Source: a virus
Lineage: Duplodnaviria > Caudoviricetes
IMG/VR virus record: IMGVR_UViG_3300048837_000792
Location: 1 to 39,339 of that record
Length of the DNA stretch: 39,339 bases
Reading direction: 5' to 3' (one strand)
The notes beneath the pieces were generated by a model, which was given only the letters and a program-made list of their open reading frames with translations, was not told where the DNA came from and ran no database searches. Of this stretch, positions 4,544 to 25,185 are shown piece after piece (the stretch's first letter is position 1; each line of letters starts with the position of its first letter). Both the position numbers and the translations under genes were made by a program.

Positions 4544-4693
4544 AGTTCCTCTTTAACGATTTTATAACCGTTGTTTTTTAGTAGCCCACCAAGGGCGAGT
4601 AAGAACGCCCACTCTCTCAGTCTGCCTCTAGCCACTAGTTCCTTTGATTAAGTACTTAGTGCAGGAGATAAATAAGTCGTCACTTATTTATTG

Positions 4694-4786
4694 TGTCACT
4701 GTAGGAGACTCGAACTCCTGTCTGCAACCTAGAAGCTAATTAGACTTCGTTTCAGTTGCTATCCTGACCCCTAGACGAACGGTCAC
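4694..4786 (-). ncRNA. tRNA-like RNA (atypical or pseudo tRNA) with enlarged anticodon arm
   Basis: Minus strand reads G-TGACCGT TC GTC-TAGGGGTCAG-GAT A GCAAC-[26 nt]-GTTGC AGAC AGGAG-TTCGAGT-CTCCT ACAGTGA-C. D and T arms are canonical, the acceptor stem has two mismatches, CCA is not encoded and the isotype cannot be assigned. Confidence 0.7.
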
Positions 4787-4820
4787 TCCTGCATTAAATA
4801 CTCAATATCCTTTCTTACTG

Positions 4821-4970
4821 TCATTTGTCTGTGTCTAGGGGTTTCTCACTTCGATGTAGAACAACGTCATATTCAAGCCCGTTACCATCTTTGGAAGGGC
4901 GGATGTTTTCAATAAAGCCGATGGTTCTCTCCTCTAAGATATCTCTTAATTCTTCAAAAGTTATGTTCAT
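4821..4970 (-). CDS. small hypothetical protein (49 aa, MNITFEELRDILEERTIG...)
   Basis: Hand translation; ATGA overlap and AAAGGA RBS. Confidence 0.5.
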   Translation of the reverse strand: MNITFEELRDILEERTIGFIENIRPSKDGNGLEYDVVLHRSEKPLDTDK

Positions 4971-6939: not shown

Positions 6940-7131
6940 TCATAGATTATCAATAAGCAAATTAATAAACTCATCTCTCTCGATCTCTTTAGCGCACAGA
7001 GCTACCTCGAGGGCAAACCAAGCCTTTTCAAACTGGGGGTGTTTTGGAAAGCTAAACATCCATTCCCTAATCTCAAGTATGGAGCTGTCTAGCTCCTTTG
7101 CCGTGAGGGAGTAGTAGTTTTTTACGGTCAT
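6940..7131 (-). CDS. hypothetical protein
   Basis: TAATG-coupled to the helicase stop. Confidence 0.6.
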   Translation of the reverse strand: MTVKNYYSLTAKELDSSILEIREWMFSFPKHPQFEKAWFALEVALCAKEIERDEFINLLIDNL

Positions 7132-8357
7132 TAAAATGCTCCCGCCAATCTACTCGCATACTCGCTCTCTTCAAGTATGACCGCCGATCCGTCTATAAAT
7201 CTTATCCTAACTCCTCCGTTTGGACCAGATTTTGTCTTATGAACGATAATGACTCCCTCGTTGGTATACTTGACCCCAAGTGGATCGTTTTCATCTTTCT
7301 TTCTGCCGAAAATCAATACATCGGTGGCATCCTGTGAGAAGGCGGCAGACCCAGAAATGTCGTGAATTGTTAGCTCTTTTTGCTTTTTGCCAGCGCCACT
7401 CGGCTTTCTTGGGTGGACAATTAAGAAAACAGCGGTCTTCATTCTCTTGGCAAATAAAGCCATTGTTTTCATTGAGTTTTTTTCAGACTGAATGGTGTTT
7501 TTAGAATCATTAACAAAATACCCGAAATGATCAATAATGATCAGATCATACCTCGGTGAGTTCTCAACAATGTCAATCATTTCGTCCAGGTTCTCAATGT
7601 TTTCCTTTGTGTAGATGTCTATGTTGTCATTGACAAAATCGGGCGGTGTTAGGTCTTCCGTAGTTAGGTCGTCAAATCGTTTATTGCACCAAATTGAGGC
7701 TAGATAGTTAATAATTGATATATCTGGCTCCAAAGCAAAATAAAGAACCTTTTTGCCCTGTTTGGCGACCCTGTGTGCAAAATTACAAGCTATCGTAGAC
7801 TTACCAACATTGGTTTGACCAGTCATTGTATAAAGCCTGCTCGGTACAAATCCTTTAATGATTTTGTCTAATGAGTCATAACCAGTAGAGGGCGCTTGCT
7901 CTTCCAGAGCCCTATCTTTAATCCTTAGTTTTGAGACATCAGACAGTTTCTTAGGCTTGTTGTCGAGTATTCCCTGAATCTTCTTGATTTCTTTCAAAAC
8001 AGAGTTGGGGTCTTGGTTGTCTAGCTTTTGAATTTTCTTTTTTAGAGCAATCCTTTGTTGAAGCTCTGCAAACTCTTTTATGTTTTTATCTCCTATGGCT
8101 GATGAAAACGACATTTCGACTGTTAAAAGCTTGGTTAGGTACCTCCTGTCGAGTAAGTCGTTTATCAAAAATTCTGAGAAAGTATATTCTGCCTCTGACT
8201 TGATGTAGTCTTTCGCCATTGCCAAAACCACATGGGCTCTGGTTGAAAAAGTAAGTCCCTTTAGTCTTCCCAGATAGGCTCTAAGCTCTTCTCTCTCTAG
8301 AGTTATTAGGAACGCGATTATTTTGTCCTCAAGCTGCGATAGTTTATCGTATGTCAT
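7131..8357 (-). CDS. dnaB: replicative DNA helicase, DnaB/T7 gp4 (SF4) family
   Basis: Walker A GQTNVGKS, Walker B LIIIDH, HPRK, DISGSAAFSQDATDVLI, KTKSG. Likely start 8357 with GGAGG RBS. Confidence 0.9.
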   Translation of the reverse strand: MTYDKLSQLEDKIIAFLITLEREELRAYLGRLKGLTFSTRAHVVLAMAKDYIKSEAEYTFSEFLINDLLDRRYLTKLLTVEMSFSSAIGDKNIKEFAELQQRIALKKKIQKLDNQDPNSVLKEIKKIQGILDNKPKKLSDVSKLRIKDRALEEQAPSTGYDSLDKIIKGFVPSRLYTMTGQTNVGKSTIACNFAHRVAKQGKKVLYFALEPDISIINYLASIWCNKRFDDLTTEDLTPPDFVNDNIDIYTKENIENLDEMIDIVENSPRYDLIIIDHFGYFVNDSKNTIQSEKNSMKTMALFAKRMKTAVFLIVHPRKPSGAGKKQKELTIHDISGSAAFSQDATDVLIFGRKKDENDPLGVKYTNEGVIIVHKTKSGPNGGVRIRFIDGSAVILEESEYASRLAGAF

Positions 8358-9264
8358 AAGCCTCCAATAATTGATTGTAAAAATCACCTTCCTTATCTTT
8401 TTTGGCAGCAGTTTTGTTGGCTTTTTGTGAACAAAACCTGTCTACATAGACGAACATATCTTTGCCCCAAACTTTTTTATCGTAAGAACTTCCGTTCACC
8501 CATTGAATATAAGCTGATTTGCAGTCAAGAACTTCTTGCTTAGAAATACTGTGTTTTTTGGAGAGTTCTTCAATCTCTAATTCTCCAACATTATCTTTGA
8601 GAGATATGGCGATACCCGACGATCTGTCAAGAACTCCAGTGTTTTCTGCTCTAATTAGCTTTTCTGTGTATGAAGTTAGGGAGTCTCCACTCAGGTAGGG
8701 TTTTAATTTCTTGGCTTTTTTTCTGGCTCTGGTTATTTTCTTCCTTTCAAGGTATTCCACCAACTCTTGAGAGTCTTCTGGGCTTTGGTTTCCCTCTTTG
8801 TTTTGGGATTGAGGAAAACTGGGGAGGTTCGGAGGGGGGGTAGCACCCCTCTGATGTTTTTCTTTATATATATTCTTTACTATATACTCGCCATTTATGG
8901 TGGACGGGGGTGCCCCATTTATGGTGGACGGGTGCTCCATGACCCCTTTTTGGTAGGCGTAAATATGACGGATTGTTCCGTAGTTTTCACCGATTTGACC
9001 CGTTCTCTCGTTTTTCTTAACTTTTGTTATCTCCAGGCTAAGAAAACCTTTTTTAACCAATTTTGATATATGTTTACTGACCATACTGTCTGATAGGCCC
9101 ACTTGCTCTCCAATCCAAGCGTTGCTGGCGTAACAGTAGCCCTCCTCTTTGGTTAAACCGACAATGATTCCGAACACGGTTTTTTCTTGCATAGACAATT
9201 CTTTGCAAGTCATTATGTGTTCAGGGATAAATAGGAAACTCACCGCTGCCTTCCTGTGTAACAT
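8344..9264 (-). CDS. phage replication initiator / replisome organiser (N-terminal wHTH)
   Basis: FLFIP...LS..EK.VFG.I..L....GYCYASN.....VG.S...VSK.IS.L...GF; directly upstream of the helicase; contains iterons. Start placed at the ATG at 9264 because the upstream extension is structured RNA. Confidence 0.8.
   Translation of the reverse strand: MLHRKAAVSFLFIPEHIMTCKELSMQEKTVFGIIVGLTKEEGYCYASNAWIGEQVGLSDSMVSKHISKLVKKGFLSLEITKVKKNERTGQIGENYGTIRHIYAYQKGVMEHPSTINGAPPSTINGEYIVKNIYKEKHQRGATPPPNLPSFPQSQNKEGNQSPEDSQELVEYLERKKITRARKKAKKLKPYLSGDSLTSYTEKLIRAENTGVLDRSSGIAISLKDNVGELEIEELSKKHSISKQEVLDCKSAYIQWVNGSSYDKKVWGKDMFVYVDRFCSQKANKTAAKKDKEGDFYNQLLEAYDIR
8855..8940. repeat. putative replication origin: two 18-bp iterons plus AT-rich tract inside the initiator gene
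   Basis: CCATTTATGGTGGACGGG at 8891-8908 and 8915-8932, next to TTTTTCTTTATATATATTCTTTACTATATA; lambda O-like arrangement. Confidence 0.6.
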
Positions 9265-9280
9265 TACACGACTAGATACT

Positions 9281-9417
9281 AAAAAACCGCTTAATTGGTA
9301 GCAAGCTGAACCACAGCCTTTGGCAAGCGTGTACCTGCCACCAATCAAACGGTCTTTGTGTGGTTCAATTCTAACATGACCCCCGCTTGCCAAAGGGGTG
9401 GGAGTAAACTCTCCCAC
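9281..9417 (-). ncRNA. structured 5' leader / attenuator-like RNA of the replication initiator
   Basis: 18-bp helix 9336-9353/9286-9303 (perfect on the minus strand with 3 G-U pairs) followed by a U-tract; 13-bp helix 9384-9396/9317-9329; 9-bp helix 9359-9367/9307-9315; 7-bp hairpin 9398-9417. Confidence 0.7.
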
Positions 9418-9453
9418 TTATGTAGTCATACCTAAGTTAATAGGACGATAATA

Positions 9454-9483
9454 AGTATACTCACATTCGGATTATTTTGTAAA
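9454..9483 (-). promoter_or_regulatory. promoter for leader RNA and initiator
   Basis: TTTACA-N18-TATACT. Confidence 0.55.
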
Positions 9484-9511
9484 GAATATCTTTTTATATC
9501 AAAACTATATC

Positions 9512-9547
9512 AAAAACCCCGTACTCAATATCGCGTAAGTACGGGGT
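9512..9547 (-). terminator. intrinsic terminator downstream of recA
   Basis: ACCCCGTACTTA-8 nt loop-TGAGTACGGGGT followed by TTTT. Confidence 0.8.
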
Positions 9548-9594
9548 CTCCATGTTCAGTTGTCGCCAAAGCCACAAAAGATATGTGTTCTAAG

Positions 9595-16929: not shown

Positions 16930-17634
16930 ATGCTAAGCGTTGTCATCCCAGTGCACAATTCCCTGCCTACTCTGAAGACCACTATTCAGTCGGTTCTGGA
17001 TAATACCAAGAGACTAAAGGAGTTGATTATAGTTGACGACTTTTCCAACGGGGTGACGAAGGATTGGATTGGAAACCTGAATCTGGATCACACCCTAGGC
17101 ATCACCCTGATTAAAGCAAGTCTCCCCAAGCACTCCTGGACCAATAAAGCCTGGAATACTGGAGTAGCCCTAGCTAGTCAGCCATATATTGCCGTGCTTA
17201 ATTCAGACATTACTCTTTCGAAAGATTGGGATATACCATTGATTGACGCGCTTTATGGGTACACAATTGCTTGCCCCTCTCTGCCAGACTGTTCTATCGC
17301 GCCCTTTATGAAAGAGATTGACCCGAGGATGATCCAGGGCTGCGCCTTTATGTTTGAAAAAGAAGATCGAGATATTCTGTTTCCAATACCAGAGGAACTT
17401 GTTCACTGGCATGGAGATCGGCTACTTGCTGATCGCGCCAACGCCATGAACGGAGTGTGTATCTCTTCTCTAGCAATCGTTACACACGAACCATCGAGTT
17501 CAGCCAAACTACTCAAGCCCTTTGAATACTACAAGACTGTACTTGAGGACTGTTATGCCTACGAGAAAATGACTGGTAAAGACGAATCTATCGTTAAAGA
17601 CATTATTTGGGAAAATATTAAGAATCTTACTTGA
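16930..17634 (+). CDS. glycosyltransferase family 2
   Basis: MLSVVIPVHN, ELIIVDDFS, AWNTGV, LNSDI, GCAFM, WHGD. Confidence 0.9.
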   Translation: MLSVVIPVHNSLPTLKTTIQSVLDNTKRLKELIIVDDFSNGVTKDWIGNLNLDHTLGITLIKASLPKHSWTNKAWNTGVALASQPYIAVLNSDITLSKDWDIPLIDALYGYTIACPSLPDCSIAPFMKEIDPRMIQGCAFMFEKEDRDILFPIPEELVHWHGDRLLADRANAMNGVCISSLAIVTHEPSSSAKLLKPFEYYKTVLEDCYAYEKMTGKDESIVKDIIWENIKNLT

Positions 17635-17658
17635 GGGCGACCCTCTCAGATCGTTATT

Positions 17659-18339
17659 TTAGGCTTTTTTCACACCAGCGTGATATGAAGTACCTGCTCG
17701 GTTGGTTGGTTTGTCATTGCCGATATGCCTGCAAGCACCTTCTTTGAGCCAGAGTGTTTTTAGACGGGATTTTTCCACTAGCTCCCCTAGCTCTGTTTCG
17801 TTTCTACCTTCAAATTTGACCAGACTCCCTAGCCCTGTTTTTCTAAGATGCGGATTGAATGAGAACAAGTGGTTGGTACACAGGTCAGCTTTATCATTAT
17901 AAGGAACGGTTTGGGTGGCACTTCCATCATCTCTGTGGCGAACTCTTACCTGGGCAACTTTATCATCAATTACCTCAAAGCAATCTTCTATAAAGCCAGG
18001 TCGGTCAAACTCCCAATCATCTTCTAGGTGAAACACATAGGGAGTCTTGACATACTTCATCATAAAGTCGATTGATCTAGCCTGTCCCATCTGCTCTAGC
18101 TTCATTAGTCTCCAGGGGTACGGAAGCTTCATCAGGTGAATCATATCAAAGGTTTGCATCCAGACATCTTCAAGTCCAGAGTCGTCTCTGATATAAAACA
18201 TCTTGATTGGGTAATCATTAAACTTGGCGAAGCTCTCAAGCGTTCTTTTAAGCAGGTCGATCCTGTCGCAAGCCGTCAGAACTACTGTCAATGCTTTCTC
18301 TGGACTGTAATCGCCTTTATATAAACTGTGTTTTCTCAT
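17659..18339 (-). CDS. glycosyltransferase (GT-A fold, GT2-like)
   Basis: TVVLTACDR.DLL..TL.SF, RDDS, YVFHLEDDW, FSFNP, RHIG. Confidence 0.85.
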   Translation of the reverse strand: MRKHSLYKGDYSPEKALTVVLTACDRIDLLKRTLESFAKFNDYPIKMFYIRDDSGLEDVWMQTFDMIHLMKLPYPWRLMKLEQMGQARSIDFMMKYVKTPYVFHLEDDWEFDRPGFIEDCFEVIDDKVAQVRVRHRDDGSATQTVPYNDKADLCTNHLFSFNPHLRKTGLGSLVKFEGRNETELGELVEKSRLKTLWLKEGACRHIGNDKPTNRAGTSYHAGVKKA

Positions 18340-24160: not shown

Positions 24161-24523
24161 CTATCTAATAGTAGTGTTTGGCATCTGTTCTACCTTATGC
24201 CTGATACTTCTGAGCACAGACATATAGTGTACCCTGTGTATTCCCAGTGCTTTTGCAAAAGATCCGTGGTCTATTTCATACCCAAACTCTCTGCACAGTT
24301 GAATCAAAAACACCATTTTTTCTCTATCAGTCAGGTTGTAGAGAATGTCTAGCAAGGTATAGGCACCAGTGGTCTTATCTATCAGTCCTTCGACCTCGCT
24401 GCCGTTGTCCCCCACATCAAAAGTAAATTCGCCATCCTCCTGCTCTGTTTCCAGCGATGTAAAGCTATATGCTGTTGGCACATAGACTAATGGGTTTTTT
24501 TTGGCATATTTTCTTTTCGACAT
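24161..24523 (-). CDS. stand-alone sigma70 region-4-like HTH protein (candidate late activator)
   Basis: L..LTDREKMVF......GY......AKALGI.R..Y...L..IR.K. Confidence 0.6.
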   Translation of the reverse strand: MSKRKYAKKNPLVYVPTAYSFTSLETEQEDGEFTFDVGDNGSEVEGLIDKTTGAYTLLDILYNLTDREKMVFLIQLCREFGYEIDHGSFAKALGIHRVHYMSVLRSIRHKVEQMPNTTIR

Positions 24524-25185
24524 ATTTTCCCGCTCCTTATTTCAAAATCGCTGGTTATTAGCTTGTGAGTGTCGTTTTTAACCTGCGGATCTTTCCTAAT
24601 CCTGCTTCCAGACTGTTGTCGGTAGTATAGGAGGGTGTTCGCCTTATTAAACCTAAACCCGTCTGCCATGGCTCTGATCCAAAAATCCCAATCTTCGAAC
24701 AAGGGTAGTTCTTTGAAGCCGCCCAGTTTTTCATAGACGGTTCGCCTCATCATTGAGGTAACGGGAATACTCATTTTATGAGCCAGCAAGTCTCTTGCCC
24801 CAAGCTTCTTCGGGTTTTCTATTAGTTGGTTTTGTACCTCTCCGAACAACAAAAGGTCGGGATAAACAATGTCTGACTTAGCAATCACCTTGCCACATTG
24901 CTGAATAAAGTCGGGAGCTAATTTGTCGTCTGCATCCACAAAAAGTATTAATTCTCCCTTGCTCATTTTAACCCCAATGTCTCTTGCGAAAGCAACTCCT
25001 CGGTTTTTATTAAGCACTATTGAGAGACAGGCTTTGTGAGTTGGTCGTAAGTTAGAGCCGTCGTCTACAAAGATGATTTCTCTAGGCAGCACCGTTTGAG
25101 CGAGTATGGATGTTATGCACTCTTCAATTTGCTCGGTAGGCTTATTGTAGTTTGTAACGATTACACTAAGAAGATCTGTTTTCAT
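24487..25185 (-). CDS. glycosyltransferase family 2
   Basis: SVIVTNYN, EIIFVDDGS, NRGVAFARD.G, LFVDADD, LGGF, EDWDFWIR, YYRQ. Confidence 0.92.
   Translation of the reverse strand: MKTDLLSVIVTNYNKPTEQIEECITSILAQTVLPREIIFVDDGSNLRPTHKACLSIVLNKNRGVAFARDIGVKMSKGELILFVDADDKLAPDFIQQCGKVIAKSDIVYPDLLLFGEVQNQLIENPKKLGARDLLAHKMSIPVTSMMRRTVYEKLGGFKELPLFEDWDFWIRAMADGFRFNKANTLLYYRQQSGSRIRKDPQVKNDTHKLITSDFEIRSGKICRKENMPKKTH

Follow-up and report, generated by a model that had tools for sequence, protein, structure and literature searches.

An RNA leader with three mutually crossing helices as a candidate self-targeting attenuator upstream of a phage replication initiator gene

Introduction

RNA-only control of phage replication genes has been established for few systems, e.g., P4 and P1 in enterobacteria. 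P4 CI-type RNA has two loops and is about 77–80 nt long. P4 immunity (CI RNA, seqA, and seqC) and C4 of P1/P7 (RF01695) appear to be the closest in working to the locus described in this study. In these systems, as outlined in the articles cited, a sense-strand small RNA derived from the leader of the replication operon is complementary to sites on the same transcript and causes premature termination (PMC4825925, PMC10111431), and translation of eta across the P4 immunity RNA prevents termination (PMC10111431). IsrK of Gifsy-1 is described as the short, terminated isoform that is made from one promoter together with a long read-through isoform, on which it acts in trans (PMC4825925).

Leaders with alternative folds are also described for plasmid replication genes. 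The rep leaders of pT181 (repC) and pIP501 (repR) adopt two mutually exclusive folds, one of which contains a terminator, and kissing loops are used for recognition (PMC3753616, PMC8383071). In ColIb-P9 repZ, a cis pseudoknot and the inhibitory Inc RNA compete for a hairpin loop of the initiator leader (PMC8383071). In addition, the catalog of Fremin et al. (2023, PMC10690425) contains six uncharacterized candidate structured RNAs upstream of HTH_36 genes, e.g., DNAVirus_3182, _4859, and _8246.

The present study concerns a 39,339-nt stretch of viral DNA (IMG/VR record IMGVR_UViG_3300048837_000792), hereafter the window. A first-pass annotation made from its letters alone had proposed that a minus-strand leader with three crossing helices, A, B, and C, gates the replication initiator gene. 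We characterized this leader by folding predictions, comparison with related phages, and database and literature searches. The leader is probably an attenuator that throttles the initiator and helicase genes. Our main reading, to which we assign a probability of roughly 0.45, is that this attenuator has feedback in trans: the terminated RNA would bind new transcripts and promote their termination.

Results

Genomic context and position of the leader

The window is a virus record carrying portal, terminase, and capsid genes, and an identical copy lies inside a 49,782-bp record rated complete (L001/G001). Its minus strand encodes an SNF2-like helicase, recA, an HTH_36 replication initiator, and a DnaB helicase. 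The features around the leader are as follows.

9511..9552, minus strand: predicted intrinsic terminator behind the recA-like gene (17 pairs, U tail)
9454..9483, minus strand: sigma70-type promoter-like site, TTTACA-18-TATACT (10/12 consensus match)
8891..8932, strand not given: two 18-nt direct repeats followed by an AT-rich stretch, within the initiator gene
8344..9243, minus strand: replication initiator, HTH_36 (PF13730), 299 aa from GTG 9243
7131..8387, minus strand: DnaB-like helicase, overlapping the end of the initiator gene

The terminator at 9552–9511 would insulate the leader from the recA-like gene. Since this terminator and the promoter-like site at 9483–9454 both lie between recA and the initiator gene, the element would be the 5′ leader of the initiator–helicase operon, with transcription predicted to start near 9447. 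In the two phages that have homologous leaders (L321 and L323, see below), the promoter-like site is weak in L321 (8/12 only), and L323 has a −35 box and spacer identical to those of the window. The repeats at 8891–8932 with the adjacent AT-rich stretch are likely the replication origin, a role that we assume for initiator-internal repeats by analogy with lambda O.

No tyrosine integrase or serine resolvase was matched in nine of nine near-complete records (G001, G007, G009, G002–G005, G010, and G012), no HTH_3 repressor in the window phage, L321, or L323 (3/3 records), and no ParA above the cut-off in five of five records. The absence of integrase, resolvase, and HTH_3 matches fits RNA-based copy control or immunity, and it fits equally a lytic phage that times its replication. 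A listing of sequencing runs with this phage gave four DNA runs of one study, two of them possibly the origin of the window sequence, and no RNA runs; the four DNA runs contained no variant letters.

Elsewhere in the window, three glycosyltransferase-like genes lie amid the packaging genes (16930–18339 and 24487–25185). A non-coding-looking region at 4560–4850 on the minus strand contains a 12-bp inverted repeat, several hairpins, and a tRNA-like T-loop word, and neither ARAGORN nor Rfam made a call in it. The inverted repeat (4766–4843) was set aside as lying outside the leader element.

Anatomy of the leader

The segments and hairpins of the leader, in the order of transcription, are listed below.

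9375..9430, minus strand: 5′ target domain, with a closing stem (9430–9424/9381–9375) enclosing hairpins D and E (predicted fold)
9398..9417, minus strand: hairpin D, 7 bp, with a hairpin at the same place in L321 and L323
9379..9399, minus strand: hairpin E, whose loop displays the core of C1 (3/3 homologues)
9384..9396, minus strand: C1, the target of C2, containing the TTG (9393) that opens the leader frame
9359..9367, minus strand: B1, the single-stranded partner of B2, with fully different letters in each homologue
9333..9357, minus strand: A1, the 5′ arm of the long stem, whose top (9340–9333) also pairs with C2
9340–9333/9328–9321, minus strand: local hairpin H, formed by the top of A1 with C2
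9317..9329, minus strand: C2, within the loop of A
9307..9315, minus strand: B2, within the loop of A
9281..9306, minus strand: A2, the 3′ arm of the long stem, ending in six U (9286–9281); likely terminator

The six segments C1, B1, A1, C2, B2, and A2 lie exactly where the first-pass annotation had placed them, and its description of the helices holds: C is perfect (13/13 Watson–Crick pairs, duplex −22.8 kcal/mol), B is perfect (9/9 pairs, or 10 counting one G-U), A has 18 pairs including three G-U, and every helix crosses both others. A can be lengthened to 25 pairs including six G-U (9357–9333/9306–9282, −36.2 kcal/mol), leaving a loop of 26 nt. Overlooked at that stage were the 5′ domain (hairpins D and E and the closing stem), hairpin H, and the promoter at 9483–9454.

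This arrangement is exceptional within the window. Of the 49 long-loop helices found (28 on the plus strand and 21 on the minus strand), A and C are stronger than all others, and just one 150-nt tile across both strands contains a crossing triple. None of 500 dinucleotide shuffles reached the three-helix score, any crossing triple at all being present in three of them, and the fold z-score is −5.1 on the minus strand versus −3.0 on the plus strand. A third copy of C is absent, as the complete record holds just two C arms at two mismatches. No copy of B1 was found between stem A and the initiator gene, and a search for a separately encoded partner RNA for C found none.

Homologous leaders and compensatory changes

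An alignment of 25 helicases led to ten loci, one of which is the window phage. A homologous leader is present in two of the nine related phages (L321 and L323), both complete with terminal repeats. Their alignment scores against the window leader are 78 and 74, the shuffle maxima being 31 and 30 (0/500 each), and A, B, and C are all kept. In a strict ungapped three-helix test, both leaders score 0, owing to mismatches and bulges.

In helix C, 18 of 28 cells are unchanged, five show double-sided changes, two are changed on one side, and three are broken. The base of A (34 cells) has 22 unchanged cells, four with double-sided changes, four changed on one side (three of them from G-U to A-U), and four broken. 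Two of the three G-U pairs originally noted in A have become A-U, in one homologue each. The letters of B differ among all three phages, yet the strongest pairing of each B1 is with the B2 of its own leader (−14.6, −14.5, and −9.5, versus −2.5 to −8.3 with a foreign B2); in L323, the own partner is just 1.6 kcal/mol better than that of L321. The first-pass annotation had suspected selection at the RNA level from the G-U pairs of A, and the compensatory changes in C and A and the rewritten yet still pairing B in two homologues strengthen this view. The covariation rests on three related sequences, too few for a statistical covariation test, and does not separate pairing in cis from pairing in trans. 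Judged from these sequences, the leader is a selected RNA structure.

Further searches yielded no additional homologues. A sequence-only model (R1) built from the three leaders matched 3 of 40 records, all from its training set; a RecA-based scan found no close relative; and initiator-based locus scans retrieved analogous leaders only. BLAST of the window leader against 50,697 annotated phages gave no match, and that of the L321 leader against the same phages gave two chance 30-nt matches. The exact C pattern occurs in 11 stretches, one of which is the window phage, with no long U-tailed stem among the matches listed. The leader of L003, the locus with the closest initiator (60 percent), was rejected as a homologue because its similarity is weak (reached by 12/300 shuffles, rank 4/171). 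In L321 (713–1312), the homologous leader precedes an initiator without meaningful similarity to that of the window, which suggests that the leader goes with the lineage of the helicase and not with that of the initiator.

Stem A as a likely terminator

The first-pass annotation took helix A plus the U run as a terminator. The sequences support this assignment: six U follow a GC-closed stem base in the window, and the U run is present in 3/3 leaders. Stem A and the U run thus likely act as a transcription terminator before the HTH_36 initiator and the DnaB helicase. A is missing from the output of a consensus terminator scan, which allows loops of no more than 8 nt.

A helix of 25 bp is long enough for RNase III, and together with a long loop it is atypical for an intrinsic terminator, features that would suit a stem at which RNase III or other processing controls messenger stability. 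However, conservation across all three leaders is highest at the GC pairs of the stem base and the U run that follows, and processing alone leaves B and C unexplained. We consider it very unlikely that stem A is a processing site instead of a terminator.

Successive folding states during transcription

In the finished transcript, the terminator fold A is favored (−66.5 versus −56.2 with C enforced and −52.2 with B enforced). Folding of transcript prefixes gives successive states. The top of A1 resembles C1 in all three leaders and pairs with C2 as hairpin H, which has a 3–4-nt loop and about −11 kcal/mol. When the 5′ hairpins are kept and the prefix ends at B2, the window and L321 both fold with B enclosing A1 and H, and H is retained inside a comparable long-range pairing in L323. 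Blocking B1 lowers the estimated barrier to the terminator in the three leaders (from 15.4 to 9.7, 15.6 to 12.7, and 12.5 to 3.0), these barriers being nested-model estimates without polymerase or pseudoknots. Once A is closed, its finished domain measures 77, 79, and 83 nt in the three leaders; the core of C2 and B2 are unpaired in its loops in L321 and L323, and the window prediction is less clean.

The mutually exclusive terminator and antiterminator folds predicted here support the idea of an attenuation switch ahead of the replication initiator. The C/B pseudoknot proposed as the antiterminator fared unevenly: B does form the predicted pre-terminator state, and C as the main cis antiterminator is doubtful because the conserved local hairpin captures C2 first in both homologues. 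In the window itself, C dominates the equilibrium prefix fold and may act as an antiterminator.

It had also been suggested that the three helices might form together as a knot-like structural RNA. They share no bases when A is taken as 18 bp, and prefix folding gives successive states instead. On geometric grounds, the linkers of 1–5 nt (B1 to A1) and 0–3 nt (B2 to A2) leave too little room for B next to a 25-bp A, and the 13 bp of C exceed one helical turn, which would have to pass through the closed loop. Furthermore, the extended B of L321 overlaps the start of A2. A simultaneous fold is therefore scarcely credible.

The initiator start and the leader frame

The start of the initiator had been placed at an ATG at 9265. 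The ATG is actually at 9264, and the initiator probably starts at GTG 9243, behind AGGAAGG.

9249..9255, minus strand: ribosome-binding-site-like AGGAAGG, 5 nt before GTG 9243 (same arrangement in L003)
9244..9393, minus strand: putative leader frame, 50 codons, opened by the TTG of the C1 loop and sharing the reading frame of the initiator

GTG 9243 is the likelier start because the closest initiator for which DNA is available (L003) begins at the same residue and is preceded by an in-frame stop, and because the ten closest proteins have no long N-terminal extension. An extension from GTG 9417 was rejected, having no counterpart in the ten closest homologues, as were the short frames from ATG 9377 (10 aa) and ATG 9430 (3 aa), for which L321 and L323 have no ATG at the aligned place. 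A small hairpin at 9256–9269 on the minus strand holds ATG 9264 in its loop directly 5′ of AGGAAGG; it is absent from L321 and L323.

The frame that begins with TTG or ATG in the E loop is open through the whole leader in all three phages, the other two frames having stops. The proportion of shuffles in which the leader frame stays open is 7.4, 0.8, and 9 percent. The leader frame matches that of the initiator in the window and L321; in L323 it is shifted and ends inside the initiator. The first-pass annotation had held that translation of 9265–9417 as the initiator N-terminus would speak against the element. With the frame open in 3/3 homologues, such translation would be compatible with it.

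The open frame is suggestive only and may be part of the switch. In its strongest form, ribosomes starting at the TTG/ATG in the C1 loop would prevent A from forming, as translation of eta prevents termination in P4 (PMC10111431), and pairing of C would hide the start codon and thereby repress. Against translation as the sole basis of control, the leader-frame peptides are mostly dissimilar among three related, non-independent sequences, the L323 frame is shifted relative to the initiator, and the window has no free ribosome-binding site before the TTG. A purely translation-coupled attenuator is thus quite improbable, and translation coupling may instead belong to the preferred mechanism as one of its parts.

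A self-targeting attenuator and its alternatives

In the direction of transcription, the promoter-like site is followed by hairpin E, which carries C1 in its loop, then by unpaired B1, by stem A enclosing C2 and B2, and finally by the U run and the gene. From this order and the folding predictions, attenuation with feedback in trans would operate as follows. As RNA polymerase passes, the top of A1 is predicted to capture C2 as H, and B1:B2 to close around A1 and H. B and H would delay stem A such that some polymerases read through; otherwise, A2 would displace H and B, stem A would form, and transcription would stop near 9281. The closed A is predicted to be a 77-nt rod with C2 and B2 set free in its loops. 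The RNA thus terminated would then dock, probably once its 5′ domain has been removed at the AU-rich linker, on a nascent leader by a loop kiss between C2 and C1 and by pairing of B2 with B1. An occupied B1 would no longer delay A, and the leader TTG would be covered; termination would thereby rise with the level of this RNA, providing negative feedback on the supply of the initiator. C would serve as a conserved docking site and B as a specificity code. The terminated RNA itself carries C1 and B1 and could neutralize itself unless processed.

What points to action in trans is the fate of C2, which is predicted to be masked during synthesis and displayed after termination, an arrangement that is sensible only if C2 acts later. 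A purely cis kinetic attenuator, in which C and/or B form before A2 and block A and a fixed fraction of polymerases reads through, perhaps tuned by pausing or a protein, would need no RNA in trans. The window itself favors it: C is the minimum-energy helix of unconstrained prefixes ending at 9322–9295, rather than B plus H, and the barrier to the terminator is highest from this C state (31.8 kcal/mol). The non-homologous leaders L003, L008, L017, L006, and L020 share the order of a long-range helix first and a final stem last, and all the covariation is compatible with pairing in cis. However, the L321 prefix minimum is B plus H, and L323 keeps H too. Cis control would moreover leave unexplained why C2 is masked by H in synthesis and displayed only in the finished terminator in 3/3 leaders, and it names no signal. 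We therefore regard cis control alone as rather doubtful.

A signal could also come from the opposite strand, as in attenuators of the pT181/pIP501 type, if an antisense RNA from the linker between E and A covered C1 and prevented a cis antiterminator. L321 has an antisense promoter-like site (10/12) with its −10 box just 3′ of hairpin E, L323 has a 7–8/12 site at the same place, and a −10-like hexamer occurs there in the window. Nevertheless, no window site at this place reaches 7/12, no antisense promoter-like site points into the window leader, and the AT-rich linker makes such hexamers cheap. The candidate antisense promoter is convincing in L321 only (1/3), and an antisense RNA from the linker would leave B1 uncovered. 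Countertranscript control is accordingly improbable, and the sense-strand terminated RNA remains our preferred trans-acting partner.

Leaders upstream of other initiators

From 274 initiator loci, we kept 172 distinct leaders with at least 150 nt upstream each. A crossing helix pair (at least 12 kcal/mol each) is present in 8 of the 20 leaders in the clade of the window versus 4 of the 152 others.

Two alignable families, neither homologous to the window leader, show allele-specific pairing of a loop with its target, which speaks for our main reading. The first, a kissing-terminator family, comprises 13 distinct leaders from 20 loci with three loop alleles. In these leaders (L295–L314, the L016/L020 family), about 115 nt before the initiator ATG, a kissing interaction joins the loop of the first hairpin to that of a terminator immediately 5′ of the ATG. 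The own partner is best in 13/13 (0/20,000 permutations), and 89 percent of cells are paired, with double-sided changes in three of seven pairs, the third allele being misaligned. The initiators are nearly identical and the three alleles always matched; the middle hairpin reassorts while the loops stay matched. These leaders have a promoter box that we take to be of the Bacteroidota type. One loop allele shares a 7-nt core with helix B of the window, which is suggestive only.

In the second family, a hypervariable loop is complementary to a segment at the ribosome-binding site. These cloverleaf leaders (L005, L007, L129, L131–L136, L142, and L211), about 100 nt before the initiator ATG, have a mostly conserved CCGG loop, the second loop being the hypervariable one. 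Among the 11 leaders, picked by eye, the own target is best in 10, and Rfam gave no match in the 10 that were scanned.

Five further non-homologous leaders (L003:1445–1520, L008:1347–1480, L017:1423–1500, L006:1393–1497, and L324:1040–1165) have a long stem immediately preceding the initiator, and the loop of this stem is complementary to a strand farther upstream. In L003, L008, L017, and L006, an ATG lies in or beside the upstream strand, and the end of the frame that it opens overlaps the start of the initiator in L003 and L017.

Discussion

The leader matches no known family, as the first-pass annotation had supposed. An Rfam 15 scan of the window gave no match at the gathering threshold; around the leader, the ten matches at E up to 10 included neither C4 nor IsrK and were all far below threshold, and L321, L323, and L324 gave no match at E 0.1. 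A literature search found no description of the element, and the portions of PMC2864571 and PMC5737381 consulted contain no matching motif.

The resemblance to P4 CI and pT181 noted from the start is upheld by the upstream same-strand targets and by the exclusive folds before a rep gene. As in P4 and P1, complementary targets (C1 and B1) lie upstream of the putative small RNA on the same strand. A two-loop, stem-closed RNA like that of P4/P1 is predicted clearly in L321 and L323 and less cleanly in the window. Unlike P4 and P1, which also have a downstream site (seqC/a2b2), the leader has an upstream target only, and its pairing segments lie inside the terminator stem itself. Furthermore, it shows no sequence or model match to them, no Ash/Bro-type gene was recognized around it, and processing is only supposed.

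The other precedents differ in sign, strand, or level of control. IsrK, as described in the source cited above, activates translation of an antiterminator gene, whereas the leader is predicted to repress a replication initiator and has no Rfam match. Compared with pT181 and pIP501 as presented in the cited articles, the partner strands here would pair with the loop of the terminator, and an antisense promoter is convincing in one of three leaders only. ColIb-P9 repZ, in the account cited, is controlled at translation by an antisense-strand RNA without a long terminator, unlike the leader here. Among the candidates of Fremin et al., DNAVirus_3182 differs from the leader, being given as a 102-nt RNA of human gut Clostridia phages without a terminator call (PMC10690425). 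These HTH_36 candidates, known by description rather than by alignment, may bear on the novelty of the leader. On the sequence evidence at hand, the leader is an uncatalogued RNA and probably a variant of RNA-gated attenuation of replication genes.

The leader is a compact, covariation-backed element available in three natural alleles. Repression in trans by the terminated RNA, if it occurs, would offer phages that have neither an integrase nor a CI-type repressor a way to maintain a carrier state and keep out their kin, and the alleles would be naturally orthogonal attenuator parts. If control is in cis only, the antiterminator would still be unusual in gripping the loop of the terminator rather than an arm. 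A broader picture, which we offer tentatively and consider possible rather than probable, is that the aborted leader would become an active repressor only by terminating, and that phages of uncultured hosts lacking both integrase and repressor would control their origin by RNA alone. Such a system would provide superinfection immunity or a copy control like that of plasmids; immunity groups would be set by the hypervariable B helix, and the loop-target leaders before HTH_36 initiators would form a widespread, repeatedly evolved self-targeting class.

In L008 (1480–2151) and L003 (1519–2232), the HTH_36 gene and its leader stand alone, with no adjoining helicase or loader, and in L003 the gene lies between oppositely oriented genes, one of which is tail-like. 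These leader–initiator units are possibly a mobile cassette. Another replication gene, in L320, is directly preceded by a 21-bp long-range helix around about 130 nt (741–912).
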